Shown here in pieces: positions 78-57,100 of a stretch of DNA of 58,338 nucleotides (positions are counted from its first letter, which is position 1; every line of letters starts with the position of its first letter). The stretch is from assembly GCA_003136935.1 (NCBI GenBank), contig PLEC01000130.1, forward strand, positions 41,050 through 99,387. The letters are read 5' to 3'. A model generated the notes under the pieces. That model was given only the letters and a program-made list of their open reading frames with translations, did not search any database and was not told the DNA's origin. The stretch is from Gammaproteobacteria bacterium (GTDB lineage Bacteria > Pseudomonadota > Gammaproteobacteria > Steroidobacterales > Steroidobacteraceae). A program made the position numbers and the translations under genes.

Positions 78-2630
78 TCAGCGCCCGAATCTGTAACTCA
101 CGTCCAGACCGTAGGTGAGCGGCTGATTGACGATATAGCGAGTAAAGGCCGCACTCTGAAGATTGATCTGCGGCTGCGTGTCGAGCAGGGTCTCCTTGTT
201 GAACAGATTGTTCACAAACAGACTGGCGGTCCAATTGTCAGACTTGATTCCCACACGCAGATTCGCCAGGCCATACGAAGGCAGATGCACCAGCAGCTGG
301 TTCATGTTGTTGAGCGTGATGGTCTCCCCGTACGGAGCATTGGTGCGCCCGCCAATGTAGTTATAGGACAGCAAACTGATCAGCTCCAGCCCGGCTGACA
401 GCGGCTGCACATTGCGCAGCGTCAGGGAGCTGGTGACCTTCGGGAAATCGGGTATGGCCGTGCCCGACAGATAGCCGGTGATGGCGCTGTCAGCCAGGAA
501 CTTACTGTCCGCATAGCCGAGGTTCCCGGAGAACGAGAAACCCGCCGGCAGCTTGAGCCACGCTTCAACCTCCGATCCGATGATTCTGGCGTCCGCTCCG
601 TTGACGGTGTACCCGAAGCCGCCGATGTTGGTGGCAAGCTGTGGGCTGGTCCAACGTTCGTAGTACGCATCCACGTTGAGCGTGAGCTGGCGATCGAAGA
701 ACTCCCCCTTCTCGCCCACCTCGTAGTTCCATACCGAATCGGCGTTGAACGCCGGCACACCCTGCGCGTTGGCATTGGGGAACTGCACGTTGGGAGCGTA
801 GTAACCTCCGGGGTTGGTGGACGTCGCCGACAGCTTGGTCTGCAAGCCGCACTGCAGGAGGATTGCCAGAGTCGGGATCGTCAGACCCGCGCAGTTAGCC
901 GGCGTCACGTTGGTCAGATAGCCAGTGAATGGCTGATCGGTGCCGCCCAAACGAAAGCCTTTGGCCGCCGTGCCATACAGGAGCAGATTCGAATTAACCT
1001 GCCACGACAGATCGAACTTCGGGTTGACGCCGTTCGCGCTGTCGGAGGCCGACGTGTTAAACGGAGCGGTGTTGCCCGCCAGTGTCGAAGGGCTCGCGAA
1101 AAGATTATTGAAGCCGAACGGCGTGAAATCACCGTATTCCATGTTGGTCTGGTCGTACTTGTACTTGTAGCCGCGCAGTCCCAACGTCGCCTTCCAGCCT
1201 TCGGCGAACTCCATCGAGGCGTCGCCAAACAGAGCGTTCTGCGTGATGGTCTGGGGCATGTCGTCAACGTAGACGTTGCCGATGCCCGCCGACATAAGCT
1301 GCGGGTTGATAGACCACATTGACCACTCGGACTTGAGGCGCTGGTAGTAATAGCCCACCAGCCACTGGAAGGGTCCCTTGTCGGTGGAGGTCAGGCGCAA
1401 CTCTTCACTCAGCTGTGAGGTGCCATCGCGCTCCTGAACCCCCGGTCCGGTGGGTCCGGGGCCGGTCGGGCCGTAGGCGGAGTAGGGATCGGCCCTGCCG
1501 AGAGACCCGAGCCCCGAGGGCCCGGCGTTTTCCTCGGTACCGTCCTGCGAGACCACAGTGATGCGGTTCCAGTTCGCCGTGGCCGAAGTGACGAGGAAGT
1601 GTTCGGTCTGCCATTCAATTTTGAGGCTGCCCAGGGCGAACACGTCATCCTGCGGCTCGGGCGTGTCGTAGATCTCAAAGTGCCCCATTGCCGAAGGCAA
1701 GGACGGGTGGCTGGGGGTGCCGTCGACGTCCACGGCACTCGGTCCAGCCTGGTGCGTATGCTGCCACATGAATGCCGGGGTAATGGAAAGTCCGTCAGCG
1801 GCACGCCAGAGGAGTGAGGCGCGGAACGAGTCGAGCGTCGAGGCATTGGCCTGGCTCACGGTCTCCGCCAGCGGCGCGGTGTAAAAGTTGGCCGGCCGGG
1901 CGCCGGTCGCCCCGTCGGTCAGCACCGCACCATCGGCGAACACGTAGCGATTGAGCCAGCCGCTCTGCGAGTCCGACGAGCCCACAATGCGCAGCGCCGC
2001 ATCCGTTCCCAGCGGCAGGTTCAACATGCCGTTCTGCGTGAAGTTAGTGCCGCCGCCCGAGTTGGTTTCGGACACCACGGTTTGGCCGCTCATGGCGAAC
2101 TCACCCAGCTGCGGGGCATTCGGCACGACCTTCACCGTGCCCCCCATGGAGCTGGAACCGTACAACGTTCCCTGCGGGCCGCGCAGGATTTCCACGCGGT
2201 TCAGGTCGTAGAGGTTGGGATCGATGACGATCTTGCCCAGCTGGGCGGAGGCCGGCGACGACAGCGCAGTCTCGTCTAGGTAGAAACCCACCACGGAAGT
2301 GTTGCCACCCGCGGAGCTCAGGCCCCTCATCTCAAATTCCGTCTGGCCGGGACCGGCGGTGCGCATGGCGATGCCGGGCACGGTTTGCGCGAGACTGTTG
2401 AAATCGGTCAATCCCTTGTTGGCGATATCGCTCGCCGAGATCGCCGTGACGCTGATTGGGGTGTTCTGCACAGTCGACTCGCGCTTAGTGGCGGTGATCA
2501 CCACTTCTTGAAGCTCATCCCCGGAATCGCCGCTCGCCTGGGCCTGCGTGTGTGCGCTGTCGGCGAGGGCCAGTCCCATTGCGATCGCGACCGCCTGTGC
2601 GATGCGGCTGCCAGTTGTGGTCGAAACCAT
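78..2630 (-). CDS. TonB-dependent outer-membrane receptor
   Basis: 850 aa. N-terminal signal peptide (…AMGLALADSAHTQAQA). Plug-domain TonB-box region (ELQEVVITATKRESTVQNTPISVTAIS). Long Gly/Tyr/Asn-rich beta-barrel ending in an aromatic-rich C-terminal strand (LTYGLDVSYRF). GGGGAG Shine-Dalgarno upstream of the ATG. Confidence 0.9.
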   Translation of the reverse strand: MVSTTTGSRIAQAVAIAMGLALADSAHTQAQASGDSGDELQEVVITATKRESTVQNTPISVTAISASDIANKGLTDFNSLAQTVPGIAMRTAGPGQTEFEMRGLSSAGGNTSVVGFYLDETALSSPASAQLGKIVIDPNLYDLNRVEILRGPQGTLYGSSSMGGTVKVVPNAPQLGEFAMSGQTVVSETNSGGGTNFTQNGMLNLPLGTDAALRIVGSSDSQSGWLNRYVFADGAVLTDGATGARPANFYTAPLAETVSQANASTLDSFRASLLWRAADGLSITPAFMWQHTHQAGPSAVDVDGTPSHPSLPSAMGHFEIYDTPEPQDDVFALGSLKIEWQTEHFLVTSATANWNRITVVSQDGTEENAGPSGLGSLGRADPYSAYGPTGPGPTGPGVQERDGTSQLSEELRLTSTDKGPFQWLVGYYYQRLKSEWSMWSINPQLMSAGIGNVYVDDMPQTITQNALFGDASMEFAEGWKATLGLRGYKYKYDQTNMEYGDFTPFGFNNLFASPSTLAGNTAPFNTSASDSANGVNPKFDLSWQVNSNLLLYGTAAKGFRLGGTDQPFTGYLTNVTPANCAGLTIPTLAILLQCGLQTKLSATSTNPGGYYAPNVQFPNANAQGVPAFNADSVWNYEVGEKGEFFDRQLTLNVDAYYERWTSPQLATNIGGFGYTVNGADARIIGSEVEAWLKLPAGFSFSGNLGYADSKFLADSAITGYLSGTAIPDFPKVTSSLTLRNVQPLSAGLELISLLSYNYIGGRTNAPYGETITLNNMNQLLVHLPSYGLANLRVGIKSDNWTASLFVNNLFNKETLLDTQPQINLQSAAFTRYIVNQPLTYGLDVSYRFGR

Positions 2631-51138: not shown

Positions 51139-51587
51139 GTGAGCGAAACACTCAACCTGTCGAGTGATGATCCGGTGGCACCGTTCGAGTTGGCGGGAAG
51201 ACTTGCACGCCTGGCAGCGGTACTGATTGACGCCCTGATCGGCATCATCCCGGGAGTGGCGGCGCTGGCATATTCCGGTGGTCTGGCGCCGGTGCTTAAG
51301 GGTCAGCCACTGACTACCCAGCAAGCGCTGCTTGTAGCTGTGTGGAGCTGGGGCAGCTAACCATCGGCAAGTATTTGCTGCACGTTCGCATTGTCGATCT
51401 GCAAGGCCGGATTGCGCCCTTGTGGCGCGTCATACTCCTGCGCTACCTGCTGATTTCCGTTGTGGCGCAACTCGGAGTGTTGGGCAGTCTGCTGTCCACA
51501 GTGGATTGCCTGTTGATCTTTCAAAAGAGTCGCAGGTGTCTGCACGACATCATTGCTGGCACGCGAGTGATCAAAGCGCGTCCTTGA
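51139..51587 (+). pseudogene. RDD-family membrane protein gene split by a frameshift
   Basis: ORF 51139-51360 carries the N-terminal RDD-type helix (LAGRLARLAAVLIDALIGIIP). The +1-shifted ORF 51342-51587 carries the remainder (GQLTIGKYLLHVRIVD…RRCLHDIIAGTRVI). The two overlap by 19 nt. Confidence 0.6.
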
Positions 51588-52979: not shown

Positions 52980-53336
<357 letters not shown>

Positions 53337-53349
53337 GCGAATCCCCCTC

Positions 53350-53586
53350 ATGAGGGAAGCAGGAATTCGGGAGGCCCGGCAGAACCTGTCCGCCCTGATC
53401 GCGGAGGTGCGCAAGGGACACGAGGTCACAATTACGGATCGCGGCAAGGCGGTCGCGAGGCTGGTGGCGTCCCGTCCGGCGAACGCTCGGCCTTTCGGCG
53501 GCCGGGCGGCATTTCGGCGGCGGATGCCGCAGCTGACGACCACGCTCTCTTCCGCCGTCGTCGATGGCAGAGGAGCTTGCCCATGA
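53350..53586 (+). CDS. Phd/YefM-type (type II) antitoxin-like protein
   Basis: 78 aa. MREAGIREARQNLSALIAEVRKGHEVTITDRGKAVARLV is the typical Phd/VapB-type N-terminal fold, followed by a disordered C-terminal tail. Confidence 0.75.
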   Translation: MREAGIREARQNLSALIAEVRKGHEVTITDRGKAVARLVASRPANARPFGGRAAFRRRMPQLTTTLSSAVVDGRGACP

Positions 53587-54116
53587 CGCTCGAACAGATC
53601 TTCTACCTGAGTCAGTCGGTCGCCTCAGTCGCCGTGGTGGGCACCCTGATCTATCTCGGCCTGCAGGTTCGCAGCGCCGAACGCAGTCAGCGCGCCATCA
53701 TGCAGCAGGGCCGGGCTGATCGTGCTTCTCACGGTGCCCTCGGCCTGGCTGACCCCGAACTGGCGCGGGTATTCGGCAAAGCCACGGCGGGCCAGACGAG
53801 CCTGACGCGCGACGAATTTACGCAGTGGATGATGATGTGCCGTGCTCTGTTCCTGAGCGGCGAGGATTCGTACCTACAGCATAAAGCCGGGCAGCTCGAC
53901 CAACCGGCCTTCGACAGTTATGTAGCCGGGGTGCGTTACTACATGAGATCCCACGGGATGCGCGCCGCCTGGCAGGTGTCACGCGGCCAGTTCGGCAGCG
54001 ATTTTCGCAATTTCGTCGACGCGATCCTGCGTGAGCCGCCATTGGCACGCGTCGGCGATGCGTATGCCGAATGGCACAAGCTTGTTGAATCAGAGCGGGC
54101 TACGCCGGCGCCTTAA
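53577..54116 (+). CDS. Membrane-anchored protein of unknown function
   Basis: 179 aa. One N-terminal TM helix (LSQSVASVAVVGTLIYLGLQV), then a helical soluble region. It overlaps the antitoxin-like gene by 10 nt. No PIN, RelE, MazF, Doc or HipA features by eye. Confidence 0.6.
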   Translation: MPMTLEQIFYLSQSVASVAVVGTLIYLGLQVRSAERSQRAIMQQGRADRASHGALGLADPELARVFGKATAGQTSLTRDEFTQWMMMCRALFLSGEDSYLQHKAGQLDQPAFDSYVAGVRYYMRSHGMRAAWQVSRGQFGSDFRNFVDAILREPPLARVGDAYAEWHKLVESERATPAP

Positions 54117-54209
54117 ATGGTTGTGCGCGCCAGGAGCTGGCGCACCAACCAGCTACTGATTATCGAGCCGCTCCGAGTGCGGGTGAGCCGCGACTGCGGC
54201 CGCGCCGCC

Positions 54210-55934
54210 TCAGGCCTTCGCGAACCGCGCCTTCACTTCTTCCATCAACGTCTTGAAGCGGGGCTCGGCACGGATCGGATCGAAGTCCGGGTCGGCCTCC
54301 ATCCAGCTCATCATGCTCGGTGTCAGCCTCGGCGCGATACCGGCGAGAGTCTCCAGCGTCAGATCGACTTCTCCCAGCGAGGACATCGCGCAAGCGAGGT
54401 TGTAATGCAGATTAGTGTTGTCAGGATCGACGAGACGGGCCCGTGTCGCCCACTCTTTGGCGCGCTCCTTTTCCCCCAGCGTTACCAGCATGGCAACGCC
54501 CAAACCGATCGCGCGGCTATGGCCGGGCTCGGCCACGACGACCCTTTCGATGCGATCGAGAGCCCGGCGCGCAGCGCTGCGCATACGCTCCGCATCGCCC
54601 TTGGCCTTGTAGGACTGCGAGACGAAAGTCGCCGCCGTAAAATCCGTTTCCATCCCCGCGGCCGCCGCCTCGAAATGGCCGATCGCGTCGTCGTAGCGGC
54701 GCAGGCCGAGGCAGCACAGGCCGGCGATTTTATTGGCGATGTATGAACCGGGCTCCAGGCGCAGCGCGTTCTGGCAGGAGGCCAGCCCTTCCAGGTAGCG
54801 TCCCTTGCTGCGCTGCGCTGCGCCCATCGCGGCGTGCGCGTCGGCGAGATTGGGGTCGAGCCGCAGCGCCGTCGCCGCGGCGCGCTCGCCCGCGTCTGAG
54901 TCGCCTTGCCAGAACCTGTTCCACTGCGCCAGCGCCATGGTCGCCCACGCCTGCGCGTAGTTCGGATCGATCTCGATGACCCGATTGCAGATGCGATCGA
55001 CGATTACATCGTTTCTTTCATTGTCCAGAAGCCAGAATTGCCGCGCCATCAGGTACAGCTTGTACGCCTCAGGATGGGTCGTGCCGCGCTGCTCGAGCGC
55101 CTGCCGTTCTCCGGGGAGCAGCGTCAGTTTCAGTGCGGCGACGATCGCCTTGGAGATCTCGTCCTGCAGCGCGAATATGTCATTCAGGTCGCGGTCGTAA
55201 CGCTCGCCCCACAGCTGCGAGTCGTTGGCGGCGCCGATCAGTTGGGCGGTGATGCGCACCCGGGCGCCGGACTTGCGCACGCTGCCGACGAGCACGTAGG
55301 CCGCCTTCGTCTGCCGCGCGATCTGCGCCACGTCGGCGGCCGCGCTCTTGAAGGAAAAGGCGGTATTGCGCGACACGATCGAGAGTGCCGAGACCTTGCC
55401 GAGGTCGGTGATGATGTCCTCGGTGATGCCGTCGCTGAAATACTCCTGCTCCGGATCACCGCTCATGTTGGCGAACGGCAACACGCATACCGTGACGGCG
55501 GGGCGCTTGTCTTTCGCGGTCTGCGCGGCAGTTTTTCCCACCGCCCGTTTCAGTTTCGCTTCCAGAGCGATGCGCAGCGCTTTGAAAGGCGCACTGTCGC
55601 CGTTGCCCGCCCAGCCATCGAGTTCGATGGTGTGGATCGCGCGCACGTCGATCGGCAAGCGCGCATTCTCGATGCGTACCGGCACCAGCACGCCGCGATC
55701 GGCGGCGTCGCGCGCTTCGCCCTTCACCCATCGCGATTCCACCGAGGCCGGGCTCCAGACGACGACGACTGCGCCGGCGCTCTCGAGTTCGGCGCCGATC
55801 AGCCTGTCGAATTCATCGCCCGGGGTGATTTCCGGATCCCACCAGACCGACCAGCCCTGCGCCTCAAGCGCGGTCACCAGGGGTGCGACGGTAGCCTTGT
55901 CGGTCCGGGAATAGGAAACGAAGATATCGGCCAT
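54210..55934 (-). CDS. TIR domain / TolB_N-like module / TPR repeat protein
   Basis: 574 aa. N-terminal TIR (DIFVSYSRTDKATVAPLV…VVVWSPASVESRWVKGE). Central module typical of cyclase/BTAD-associated sensors (CVLPFANMSGDPEQEYFSDGITEDIITDL…AAYVLVGSVRKSGARVRITAQL). C-terminal TPR repeats. Confidence 0.8.
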   Translation of the reverse strand: MADIFVSYSRTDKATVAPLVTALEAQGWSVWWDPEITPGDEFDRLIGAELESAGAVVVVWSPASVESRWVKGEARDAADRGVLVPVRIENARLPIDVRAIHTIELDGWAGNGDSAPFKALRIALEAKLKRAVGKTAAQTAKDKRPAVTVCVLPFANMSGDPEQEYFSDGITEDIITDLGKVSALSIVSRNTAFSFKSAAADVAQIARQTKAAYVLVGSVRKSGARVRITAQLIGAANDSQLWGERYDRDLNDIFALQDEISKAIVAALKLTLLPGERQALEQRGTTHPEAYKLYLMARQFWLLDNERNDVIVDRICNRVIEIDPNYAQAWATMALAQWNRFWQGDSDAGERAAATALRLDPNLADAHAAMGAAQRSKGRYLEGLASCQNALRLEPGSYIANKIAGLCCLGLRRYDDAIGHFEAAAAGMETDFTAATFVSQSYKAKGDAERMRSAARRALDRIERVVVAEPGHSRAIGLGVAMLVTLGEKERAKEWATRARLVDPDNTNLHYNLACAMSSLGEVDLTLETLAGIAPRLTPSMMSWMEADPDFDPIRAEPRFKTLMEEVKARFAKA

Positions 55935-56125
55935 GGGCTGGTAGCACCCGCGCTCTTTAACCCATCAAACTATCACAGTTGCGTCGGGGATTTCTCTTGG
56001 GCCGCATTTGCGCCGCCGACTCAACATCCGGCTCGCTGCTGCGCCGCCTGAGGACAAATAGGCGCGCCGCGCTCCACGCATTCCGGGGCATCGCGCCCCC
56101 GCCGATCAGGCGCTATCCTCTCAAC

Positions 56126-57100
56126 ATGCCAGCCGCCATCCGCTTCCATAGCTTCGGGGGACCTGAGGTCCTGCGTAACGAGGAACTCGAGCCCGGCAAG
56201 CCGGCCACCCACGAAGTACAGATCCGCCACACCGCCATTGGTGTGAACTACATCGACGTCTACGAGCGCACCGGCCTGTACCCGGGAGAGTTGCCGCGGG
56301 GGCTGGGGCGCGAGGCGGCGGGGGTCATTACCGCTCTCGGACGCGGCGTGCGCGGATTTCGTATCGGTGAGCGGGTCGCTTACGTGTATTCCAAGTCGGG
56401 TGCCTACAGCGAGCTGCGCAACGTGCCGGCGGAGCGGCTGGTCAAGGTGCCGAAGGGAATATCGGACGAACAGGCGGCCGCCCTCATGCTCAAAGGGCTT
56501 ACCGCGCACTTCCTGATTCGCCGCACCTACAAGGTGGCGCGGGGCGACACCATCCTGGTGCACGCTGCCGCTGGCGGAGTCGGCCTCATCCTGTGCCAGT
56601 GGGCGCGTGCGCTCGGCGCCACGGTTATCGGCGTGGTGGGCAACGAGGCCAAGGCGCAGCTCGCGCGCAAGCACGGCTGCCGCCACGTGTTGATTTCCGG
56701 GCGCGACGCGCTGGTCGAGAGCGTCAAGGAGATCACCCGGGGTGTGGGTGTCGCCGTCGTGTACGACGCGGTGGGCAAGGACACCTTCATGGACTCGCTC
56801 GATTGCCTCAGGCGCTTGGGGATGATGGTGAGCTTCGGCAACGCCTCGGGCCCGGCGCCCGCGATCAGTCCGCTCGAACTCACCAAGCGCGGCTCGCTGT
56901 TTCTTACCCGCCCCACGCTCTTTGACTACATCGCCGCGCGCGAGGAACTCACCAAGGGGGCACGGGAGCTGTTCGCCGCGGTGCGTGCCCGCAAAGTGCG
57001 CATCGTGATCGGCCAGAGATACGCGCTCGCCCGCGCCGCCGATGCGCATCGGGATCTTGAAGGCCGGCGCACCACCGGCTCGACGGTGCTGGTGCCGTAA
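56126..57100 (+). CDS. qor: NADPH:quinone oxidoreductase (zeta-crystallin family MDR)
   Basis: 324 aa starting at MPAAIRF. GVNYIDVYERTGLYP. NAD(P)-binding HAAAGGVGL. C-terminal HRDLEGRRTTGSTVLVP. Confidence 0.85.
   Translation: MPAAIRFHSFGGPEVLRNEELEPGKPATHEVQIRHTAIGVNYIDVYERTGLYPGELPRGLGREAAGVITALGRGVRGFRIGERVAYVYSKSGAYSELRNVPAERLVKVPKGISDEQAAALMLKGLTAHFLIRRTYKVARGDTILVHAAAGGVGLILCQWARALGATVIGVVGNEAKAQLARKHGCRHVLISGRDALVESVKEITRGVGVAVVYDAVGKDTFMDSLDCLRRLGMMVSFGNASGPAPAISPLELTKRGSLFLTRPTLFDYIAAREELTKGARELFAAVRARKVRIVIGQRYALARAADAHRDLEGRRTTGSTVLVP

Follow-up and report, generated by a model that had tools for sequence, protein, structure and literature searches.

To our knowledge, almost all bacterial TIR domains studied to date act in anti-phage immunity or as secreted virulence factors. 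The AbTIR, PdTIR and BtTIR-type proteins (PDB 7UWG/8G83, 3H16 and 7UXR) are short TIR or coiled-coil-TIR proteins that lack a dedicated sensor domain. Sensor and output are combined within a single polypeptide in the CadC/ToxR-like receptors, of which E. coli CadC (PDB 3LY7-3LYA) carries a winged-helix head, a transmembrane helix and a periplasmic sensor in which a TolB-N-type alpha/beta subdomain precedes a TPR-like helical bundle. Rhizobial class III adenylate/guanylate cyclase-TolB-N-like-TPR proteins deliver cAMP or cGMP synthesis as their output, and we know of no ligand for the module in cyclase-headed proteins. Cyclase, kinase and winged-helix heads are outputs activated by dimerisation or proximity. 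Finally, E. coli TIR-II is an experimentally demonstrated single-protein TIR+TPR anti-phage system that depends on its TIR active-site residues, carries an ATPase in ~30% of its members and has been reported in Caudoviricetes (PMC11350192).

Here we describe a 574-residue protein, encoded within an analysed window of 58,338 nucleotides, that possesses a sensor module of its own, unlike the short TIR proteins above. The open reading frame runs from an ATG start to a TGA stop (ORF listing, Table 1), and full-length homologues share the start MAD[IV]FVSY. A Pfam TIR_2 domain (residues 4-119) is followed by a TolB-N-fold domain and TPR repeats, and ORF, Pfam, NCBIfam and AF2 analyses together confirm the fusion put forward in the original prediction. 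The strings quoted there lie at residues 3-12 (DIFVSYSRTD) and around the Glu at residue 73 (SRWVKGE), and the neighbouring genes (glnK, a Phd-type antitoxin, a 179-aa ORF and qor) are as described. No transmembrane helix, signal peptide or NTPase domain was found in the 574-aa protein; its 19-residue hydropathy peaks at 1.27 and nowhere reaches 1.6, and transmembrane helices are absent from all 44 family members examined. The linker between the TIR and TolB-N-fold domains, with a mean identity of 21%, is predicted by AF2 to be helical without a transmembrane segment, residues 135-145 being of low confidence, and the inter-domain arrangement of the full model is uncertain (pTM 0.54). As read from its sequence, the protein is probably soluble and cytoplasmic, and couples a TIR domain that probably cleaves NAD with a sensor module.

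Table 1. Coordinates of the gene, its encoded domains and its neighbours in the window
Feature	Position	Strand	Evidence
TIR / TolB-N-like / TPR protein, complete gene (574 aa)	54210..55934	-	ORF listing, homologue starts, dN/dS
TIR domain, residues 1-120	55575..55934	-	Pfam TIR_2 E=3e-24; family profile vs solved TIRs
Glu73 codon (WVKGE), candidate catalytic Glu	55716..55718	-	alignment to W-x-x-x-E motif Glu
Linker, residues 121-146, variable	55497..55574	-	AF2, identity, hydropathy
TolB-N-fold alpha/beta domain, residues 147-270	55125..55496	-	AF2, Foldseek, identity, dN/dS
TPR solenoid, residues 288-574	54213..55073	-	Pfam TPR families, NCBIfam NF047558, AF2
P-II/glnK	52998-53336		neighbour annotation
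Variable 846-bp cassette (phd + orf179), adjoining the TIR gene but separate	53336..54181	+	presence/absence pattern
Phd-type antitoxin	53350-53586	+ (cassette)	neighbour annotation
179-aa ORF (orf179), without family	53577-54116	+ (cassette)	neighbour annotation
qor	56126-57100		neighbour annotation

The Pfam TIR_2 match scores 86 bits (cut-off, 28). A profile of the family's TIR domains matches 7uxr, PdTIR (3h16), AbTIR (7uwg/8g83), SARM1 and RUN1 with E-values of 1e-10 to 2e-7, the AbTIR, PdTIR and BtTIR-type proteins being the best sequence matches (E=1e-10 to 3e-9). AF2 models residues 4-114 as the alternating beta/alpha pattern of a TIR fold with a pLDDT of ~90. The positions held in common with AbTIR, PdTIR and BtTIR-type domains comprise F-x-S-[YH], W-x-D, G and W-x-x-x-E, and the Glu of the last motif in 7uxr, 3h16 and AbTIR aligns with E73. 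This residue is kept in 50 of 51 homologues and, in a set of 44, is invariant along with F5, S7, W31 and S67, at TIR identities that fall as low as 26%. All the sequence hallmarks of the NADase-type domain proposed earlier, including an invariant candidate catalytic Glu, are present, and the domain appears catalytically competent.

The TolB-N-fold domain is the best-conserved part of the protein, with a mean identity of 72% and dN/dS of 0.04-0.06. Residues 151-178 form the LPFxNxSGDPEQEYFxDGxTEDIIxxL block (VLPFANMSGDPEQEYFSDGITEDIITDL), encoded at 55401-55484 and near-invariant as VLPFxNMSGDPEQEYFSDGITEDIITDL. Searching PDB sequences with a profile of the central domain gave no significant match, and the NCBIfam matches to TolB (residues 143-269) and CadC (161-340; 1.3e-7) are sub-threshold. 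Modelled separately, residues 140-272 reach a pLDDT of 90.6 in AF2 and align by Foldseek with the N-terminal domain of TolB (TM 0.70-0.74); further structural matches include PelC, GNA1162, LpoB, FlgT and the CadC periplasmic N-subdomain. The TPR solenoid, modelled at pLDDT >90 over most of its length and closed by a TPR_END_plus cap at residues 509-565, close to the C-terminus, is presumed to offer a ligand- or protein-binding surface. It is the fastest-diverging folded domain, with a mean identity of 45%. Foldseek aligns the TolB-N-fold domain and TPR together with the CadC periplasmic domain (3ly7-3lya) over ~295 columns at E ~1e-7, and the predicted model thus shows the C-terminal unit to have the CadC sensor-domain fold. 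As in CadC, a TolB-N-type subdomain precedes the helical repeats, and sensor and output share one polypeptide. In contrast to CadC, to which its sequence similarity is remote, the protein has a TIR head in place of the winged helix, lacks the transmembrane helix and is predicted to be wholly cytoplasmic.

The superfamily of this sensor module is very large, with 27,351 clusters at E<=1e-30, and its output domains are diverse. Among 60 representatives with heads other than TIR we found Guanylate_cyc (19), Trans_reg_C (13), BTAD (9) and at least one Pkinase, which bears out the earlier remark that the module occurs on cyclases and BTAD regulators. Cyclase, kinase or wHTH DNA-binding heads sit on modules that are 49-54% identical to that of the TIR protein. 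The rhizobial cyclase proteins share the module at 38-49% identity over residues ~100-565, with the TIR domain here occupying the slot of the cyclase, and metagenomic cyclase-headed representatives reach 50-53%. In P0138, P0139 and P0144, the cyclase-headed representatives that were checked, no transmembrane helix adjoins the module. JGI labels proteins of the TIR family 'adenylate cyclase'. Within the same genome the module also stands behind TIR-TM and wHTH-TM heads; the combination of winged helix and single transmembrane helix typical of the CadC/ToxR class is found in ToxR-like Trans_reg_C-TM-module paralogues on contigs C87 and C90. The second TIR-bearing copy in this genome is only 31% identical, and module numbers per genome range from 0 to more than 20 within the genus.

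The gene is accessory at its site, as originally suggested: in the interval comparison, glnK lies directly beside qor, with nothing between them, in ~20 of 26 same-genus genomes. In the closest relatives the TIR gene sits at this same position: one locus (L036) lacks phd and orf179, whereas two others (L034 and L035) also keep orf176 and have lost 166 bp (53380-53545) inside phd. Orthologues 85-87% identical lie at another locus where tblastn finds neither phd nor orf179. Since the pair comes and goes while the TIR gene stays, the three genes are not one unit, and the convergent orientation precludes an operon. With orf179 convergent and qor divergent, the TIR gene appears to be monocistronic. 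Conserved synteny of the orthologues was rejected, four genomes (G013, G023, G001 and G019) carrying the TIR orthologue elsewhere. Overall, the gene reached the glnK-qor site in its own species-level lineage, independently of the phd/orf179 cassette. A search for mobile-element signatures around the insertion gave only short imperfect repeats, which are within chance for DNA of 65% GC; among them is a 19-nt pair of 84% identity that flanks the gene at 54196-54214 and 56035-56053. Relative to orthologues the gene has a dN/dS of 0.09-0.18 overall and 0.11-0.21 in the TPR, and every domain is under purifying selection; at domain level the TPR shows no diversifying selection, although domain-wide values may mask a few positive sites.

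To look for partner genes, 471 ORFs lying within 5 kb in 47 family loci were clustered all against all. Apart from tandem copies of the family itself, which form arrays of up to five paralogues in a row (L050), each neighbour family is found in at most five of the 47 loci. PADLOC and Pfam analysis of the 140 nearest neighbours gave scattered single-member PADLOC hits and no defence-island enrichment, and the family loci are flanked by ordinary metabolic and transport genes. Among 50,697 phage records we found no relative of the protein. Literature searches for the TolB + TIR + TPR architecture, COG5616 and TolB-like cyclases returned no paper describing this architecture, and the family appears to be undescribed. 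Cultured carriers include Thioalkalivibrio sp. XN8, Rhodanobacter sp. C03 and Sphingomonas segetis YJ09.

We favour, at a probability of roughly 55%, a soluble cytoplasmic one-component sensor-enzyme with TIR NAD+ chemistry as its output, switched by ligand-driven self-association. The TolB-N-fold and TPR unit would bind a small molecule or protein, and binding would alter sensor self-association such that the N-terminal TIR domains are brought together. Their assembly may form a composite active site around Glu73 and so activate the cleavage or cyclisation of NAD+. As output, the enzyme could yield an NAD-derived signalling nucleotide of the cADPR-isomer type or deplete NAD+ locally, and it would serve regulation in normal physiology or a stress response, outside multi-gene anti-phage systems. 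The signalling branch has no known downstream component, as the analysis turned up no receptor for a nucleotide made by TIR. We count in favour of a sensor-enzyme the TIR hallmarks, the sensor fold, the lack of transmembrane helices, head swapping, the absence of partners and phage relatives, purifying selection and independence from phd/orf179. The accessory site, copy-number range, tandem arrays and fast-diverging TPR also fit an immune-receptor repertoire.

A stand-alone anti-phage receptor acting by abortive infection, in which the TPR/TolB-N unit senses a phage protein directly, the receptor oligomerises, the TIR domain depletes NAD+ and growth of the infected cell stops, is the strongest alternative and one that we consider unlikely. 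Such a receptor would count as an NTPase-free counterpart to TIR-Avs/NLR proteins and E. coli TIR-II. It would draw on a TIR domain that looks competent for catalysis, on lineage-specific insertion at glnK-qor, on highly variable copy number with tandem arrays at some loci, and on a TPR that is the least conserved folded domain. Precedent comes from single-protein TIR+TPR defence (PMC11350192): TIR-II, compared by description only, likewise joins an N-terminal TIR and TPR repeats in a single chain. The structure of an 824-aa TIR-TPR protein has also been solved (9m0n), but at sequence level this protein has only the TIR domain in common with ours and lacks the central module. Against an immune role stand the housekeeping flanks and lack of defence-island context, the absence of relatives from phage genomes, whereas TIR-II is reported in Caudoviricetes, the regulatory rather than toxic heads (cyclase, kinase, wHTH) on near-identical sibling modules, and uniformly purifying selection.

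Matches to defence models point the same way. PADLOC matches to the protein involve the TIR domain only and are weak (SAVED_TIR, 2.7e-11; ThsB, 1.3e-5); together with an NCBIfam ThcB4 match to that domain (5.8e-10), they cover only ~80 TIR residues and fall far under the curated cut-offs. No ThsA (SIR2/TM-SLOG/Macro) accompanies the gene among its neighbours glnK, phd, orf179 and qor, and ThsB models match at 1e-5 or weaker. With respect to CBASS and Pycsar, Pfam identifies TIR_2 and TPR only, no SAVED, STING or cNMP-binding domain is present, and no CD-NTase or cyclase is a neighbour; similarity to Thoeris ThsB and CBASS TIR-SAVED effectors is that of the TIR domain, unaccompanied by ThsA, CD-NTase or SAVED. 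The central domain has a TolB-N fold and not the P-loop of Avs/STAND NLR-like proteins, and neither Pfam nor NCBIfam detects an NTPase family. A Phd type II toxin-antitoxin system is contradicted by persistence of the TIR gene without intact phd and by the convergent orientation. The original prediction therefore stood in part: the NADase hallmarks, the lack of fit to any named system, now backed by PADLOC, and the accessory nature of the gene held, whereas the link to the antitoxin/membrane-protein pair fell with the patterns at L034-L036. Its 'defence islet' failed at family level, where no partner recurs, PADLOC hits are scattered and relatives are not phage-borne, and is further opposed by the regulatory heads of sibling modules and by uniform purifying selection.

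TIR domains of the animal TLR/MyD88 pathway are scaffolds, an established example for a non-enzymatic role in which the TIR domain would recruit another TIR protein by homotypic contact. At least four other TIR_2 proteins are encoded in the same genome (contigs C77, C88, C135 and C153) and could supply such a partner. We regard this role as highly improbable: the catalytic Glu and the NADase motif positions are invariant in 44 homologues, which is unexpected for a pure scaffold, and the gene has no linked TIR partner. A toxin-antitoxin-like or defence unit of three genes, encoding the TIR protein, the Phd antitoxin and the 179-aa membrane protein, suggested by their adjacency and by the absence of the entire 53336-55934 block from most same-genus genomes, is refuted by the presence/absence pattern, in which the TIR gene occurs with neither gene (L036), with phd internally deleted (L034/L035) or as an orthologue at another locus where neither is found.

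Under the sensor-enzyme reading, a TIR domain with an apparently intact catalytic motif occupies the slot that in sibling proteins holds cyclases, kinases or DNA-binding domains, with no partner genes or defence-island context. We tentatively suggest, as possible rather than probable, that enzymatic TIRs are ordinary signal-transduction outputs in these bacteria, able to swap places with cyclase, kinase and DNA-binding heads on a sensor of the CadC type, and that a housekeeping second-messenger pathway, parallel to cAMP and outside immunity, may run on regulated cleavage of NAD+ or on a nucleotide derived from NAD. If the family were instead an NTPase-free immune receptor, it would add a new class of defence, and a very abundant one, in soil Proteobacteria. 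If TIR chemistry is indeed a regulated physiological output of the sensor-enzyme, NAD-derived signalling in bacteria would have a wider range of known roles, and a sensor and TIR united in one protein would offer a simple system for studying how ligands control TIR assembly.

The 574-residue TIR protein (start codon ATG, stop codon TGA) joins an N-terminal TIR domain to a module composed of a TolB-N-fold domain and TPR repeats, and the reading frame, domains and motif strings described in the original prediction were all found in the sequence. Its topology is soluble, with no transmembrane helix in a hydropathy scan (maximum 19-residue Kyte-Doolittle value of 1.27) and nothing resembling a signal peptide at the N-terminus, because strand A of the TIR domain begins the protein directly.

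Locations of the TIR gene, its domains, surrounding features in the window and module proteins of the same genome
Feature	Location	Strand	Source or remark
TIR gene	54210-55934	-	
TIR_2	residues 4-119	-	Pfam, E=3e-24
TPR families, several	residues roughly 355-425	-	Pfam
TPR_END_plus cap	residues 509-565	-	NCBIfam
TolB match, sub-threshold	residues 143-269	-	NCBIfam
CadC activator match, sub-threshold	residues 161-340	-	NCBIfam
Candidate catalytic Glu of SRWVKGE (residue 73)	codon 55716-55718	-	sequence
phd, Phd/YefM-type antitoxin	53350-53586	+	
orf179	53577-54116		179-aa ORF
Gap, L034/L035 versus window	53380-53545		166 bp, blastn
Segment missing from L036	53336-54181		846 bp, blastn
Direct repeat	54196-54214 / 56035-56053		19 nt, imperfect
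RDD-family gene	51139-51587	+	40-bp deletion near 51359
Soluble TIR forms	contigs C17, C77		window's genome
TIR_2 - TM - TolB-N-like - TPR form	C153:29598-30374 region (L003)		window's genome
TM form truncated by contig end	contig C65 (L006)		window's genome
ToxR-like Trans_reg_C-TM forms	contigs C87, C90		window's genome

A full-length AF2 model built on 44 homologues (mean pLDDT 86) contains a TIR fold (residues 4-114), a long helix (115-141) that continues as a linker modelled with low confidence, an alpha/beta domain (147-267) and ~13 TPR-type helices spanning residues 288-573. Foldseek comparison with the PDB returned generic TPR proteins and, within the top fifteen (E ~1e-7), the periplasmic sensor domain of E. 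coli CadC (3ly7, 3ly8, 3ly9, 3lya), with ~295 aligned columns out of ~320. By sequence, nothing among the solved structures matches the central domain significantly. Folded separately (residues 140-272; pLDDT 90.6, pTM 0.86), it is related in fold to the TolB N-terminal domain (TM 0.70-0.74), with further structural matches to GNA1162, PelC, FlgT, LpoB, the N-subdomain of the CadC sensor and CsgG. All of these, TolB included, we take to be cell-envelope proteins, none of them cytoplasmic.

Single-sequence and profile searches of PDB sequences identified bacterial NADase TIRs as the best matches of the TIR domain (7uxr, E=1e-10; PdTIR 3h16, 1.6e-10; AbTIR 7uwg/8g83, ~1e-9), followed by TIR-STING, plant RPV1 and RUN1, and SARM1. 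E73 aligns with the glutamate of the W-x-x-x-E motif in 7uxr, 3h16, AbTIR and TIR-STING, the established catalytic residue (AbTIR E208, SARM1 E642). This glutamate is kept in 50 of 51 homologues and, in a curated set of 44, is invariant together with F5, S7, G27, W31, V58, S67 and V70, although TIR identity to the query drops to 26% in the remotest members. The catalytic hallmarks and architecture are in place, and sequence comparison provides good evidence that the domain would be catalytically competent. Nei-Gojobori comparison with six orthologues afforded dN/dS values of 0.09-0.18 for the whole gene, 0.04-0.06 for TolB-N, 0.06-0.21 for TIR and 0.11-0.21 for TPR, with no diversifying selection visible at the level of any domain; the gene is clearly functional. 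Mean identities across 43 homologues were 72% (TolB-N), 56% (TIR), 45% (TPR) and 21% (linker). The central domain seems to serve as a conserved transducer core, with specificity apparently carried by the TPR region.

A word-indexed search gave at least 8000 candidates, the best 120 of which were full-length, 71-96% identical and uniformly TIR_2 plus TPR; JGI mostly labels these 'adenylate cyclase', and NCBI 'TIR domain-containing protein'. Exhaustive search of 1.84 billion representatives yielded 27,351 clusters at E<=1e-30, with approximately one-fifth of the top 150 representatives aligning from residue 1 as TIR carriers. Among 60 representatives matching only from ~residue 140, Pfam assigned Guanylate_cyc to 19, Trans_reg_C to 13 and BTAD to 9, in addition to Pkinase, in agreement with the fusions to adenylate cyclases and BTAD domains named in the original prediction; TolB_N or FlgO matches fell on the module itself. 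Modules 49-54% identical to that of the query bear cyclase (P0138, P0139, P0144), soluble winged-helix (P0136, P0143, P0149) or kinase (P0131) heads, whereas the genome's own second TIR-bearing copy (C77) is only 31% identical, and repeated swaps of the head have therefore taken place among sensors that are close relatives. Transmembrane helices occur in 0/44 members of the query subfamily, and directly upstream of the module in 13 of the 60 non-TIR representatives.

Six module proteins are encoded in the window's genome, where the membrane-anchored TIR versions (C153, C65) have a ToxR-like topology with a predicted cytoplasmic TIR head and periplasmic sensor. Within the genus, the number of module matches runs from 0, seen even in genomes as much as 98% complete, to 26. 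Named genomes with full-length members span Steroidobacterales, Rhodanobacteraceae, Woeseiaceae, Nevskiaceae, Thioalkalivibrio, Sphingomonas, Sphingomicrobium, Caulobacteraceae, Parvularculaceae, Acidobacteriaceae and Verrucomicrobiota. Predicted proteins of 1843-2837 aa with 5-9 separate module matches each in the representative library (P0121, P0122, P0123, P0124, P0128) are either tandem paralogues that gene prediction joined head-to-tail or true multi-module proteins. Some orthologues are split into two ORFs or carry 5-12 in-frame stops (G019:C1:2637724-2639440 (L014/L033), L063, L087, L099, L114); several derive from long-read MFD MAGs, in which sequencing indels are indistinguishable from pseudogenisation.

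In the closest relatives, L034/L035 (including GCA_003161235.1) and L036, the TIR gene (93-94% protein identity) occupies the identical slot from qor to the P-II gene. The L034/L035 alignment has a gap within phd, and L036 keeps the TIR gene without phd and orf179. Because this antitoxin/membrane-protein pair varies while the TIR gene stays, it is an independent variable cassette, and the proposed tie between the two did not hold. In a qor-anchored survey of 26 same-genus genomes, ~20 had the order FdR-glnK-qor-ilvN-ilvB, with glnK adjoining qor and the TIR gene missing. Its presence at this site therefore reflects a lineage-specific insertion, and the comparison of this interval suggested in the original prediction establishes the gene as accessory. 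Orthologues at 85-87% identity lie at other loci; in L037-L039 the orthologue and a 595-aa TIR-TPR paralogue form a tandem pair flanked by DUF2252 and Band_7/NfeD genes. Overall, a site empty in most of the genus received the TIR gene, and the phd/orf179 cassette was separately gained, then decayed, alongside.

The Pfam match of the antitoxin covers its first 40 residues only, the C-terminal half consists of Arg/Ala-rich sequence of low complexity, and no toxin is recognisable; phd looks like a decaying toxin-antitoxin remnant within the cassette. The two copies of the direct repeat (84% identity) flank the TIR gene, one at each edge of the insertion, and their similarity is probably due to chance in GC-rich DNA; no other mobility signature was found around the insertion. 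Relative to L034, where the RDD-family gene is intact at 162 aa, the 40-bp deletion breaks the window's copy into ORFs of 73 and 81 aa, through either pseudogenisation or misassembly.

Clustering of all ORFs within 5 kb of 47 full-length family genes revealed no neighbour family recurring in more than five loci, except the family's own tandem copies. The longest such array, in a Gammaproteobacteria MAG (L050:1662-10819), has five consecutive paralogues on the same strand; L078 has four, and L056, L057 and L064 two or three. In a PADLOC scan of the 140 nearest neighbours, 22 models had matches at E<=1e-8, 21 of them in one protein each and one in two; they comprised mad2/3/8, a homing endonuclease, models of helicase type and a small number of others. 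The highest Pfam count was 3/140, with oxidoreductases, peptidases, permeases and similar. By tblastn, 50,697 phage records contained no relatives, and plasmid matches were solely rhizobial megaplasmid cyclase proteins having the module in common. PADLOC and NCBIfam defence models matched only ~80 TIR residues of the protein itself, far under cut-offs. The suggestion of a small defence islet therefore stands as to accessory status but not as to defence context or linked partners, which were absent from these loci, neighbours and phage records. On contig C135 of the window's genome, ORF o8663 (minus strand, 525 aa stop-to-stop) encodes a SIR2_2 - TIR_2 fusion, a single chain with two kinds of NAD-consuming domain, which resembles a defence protein far more closely than the product of the TIR gene does.

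We favour a one-component signalling protein, with a probability of roughly 55%, because the heads of sibling proteins are regulatory rather than toxic and genomic context and selection look ordinary. The module would sense a ligand or protein and govern self-association, and induced assembly of TIR heads may switch on NAD+ chemistry at E73, given that class III cyclase, winged-helix, Ser/Thr kinase and TIR heads are all proximity-activated. The same regulatory heads, context and selection make a stand-alone anti-phage receptor less likely, but it is a serious rival in view of the accessory distribution, tandem arrays, faster TPR divergence and a precedent from experiments on E. coli TIR-II, which likewise joins TIR to TPR (PMC11350192). 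TIR-II and the reported two-gene system BcTir/BcTpr (bioRxiv 10.1101/2023.05.26.542521) are, as far as testable, without the TolB-N module, and the solved TIR-TPR protein 9m0n has the TIR domain alone in common with the TIR protein. Searches of full-text literature yielded no paper on a TIR / TolB-N / TPR protein. The individual domains are already known, as is the logic of a sensor with swappable outputs; the window adds a clear sequence of events at one locus, for the TIR gene and the phd/orf179 cassette alike.
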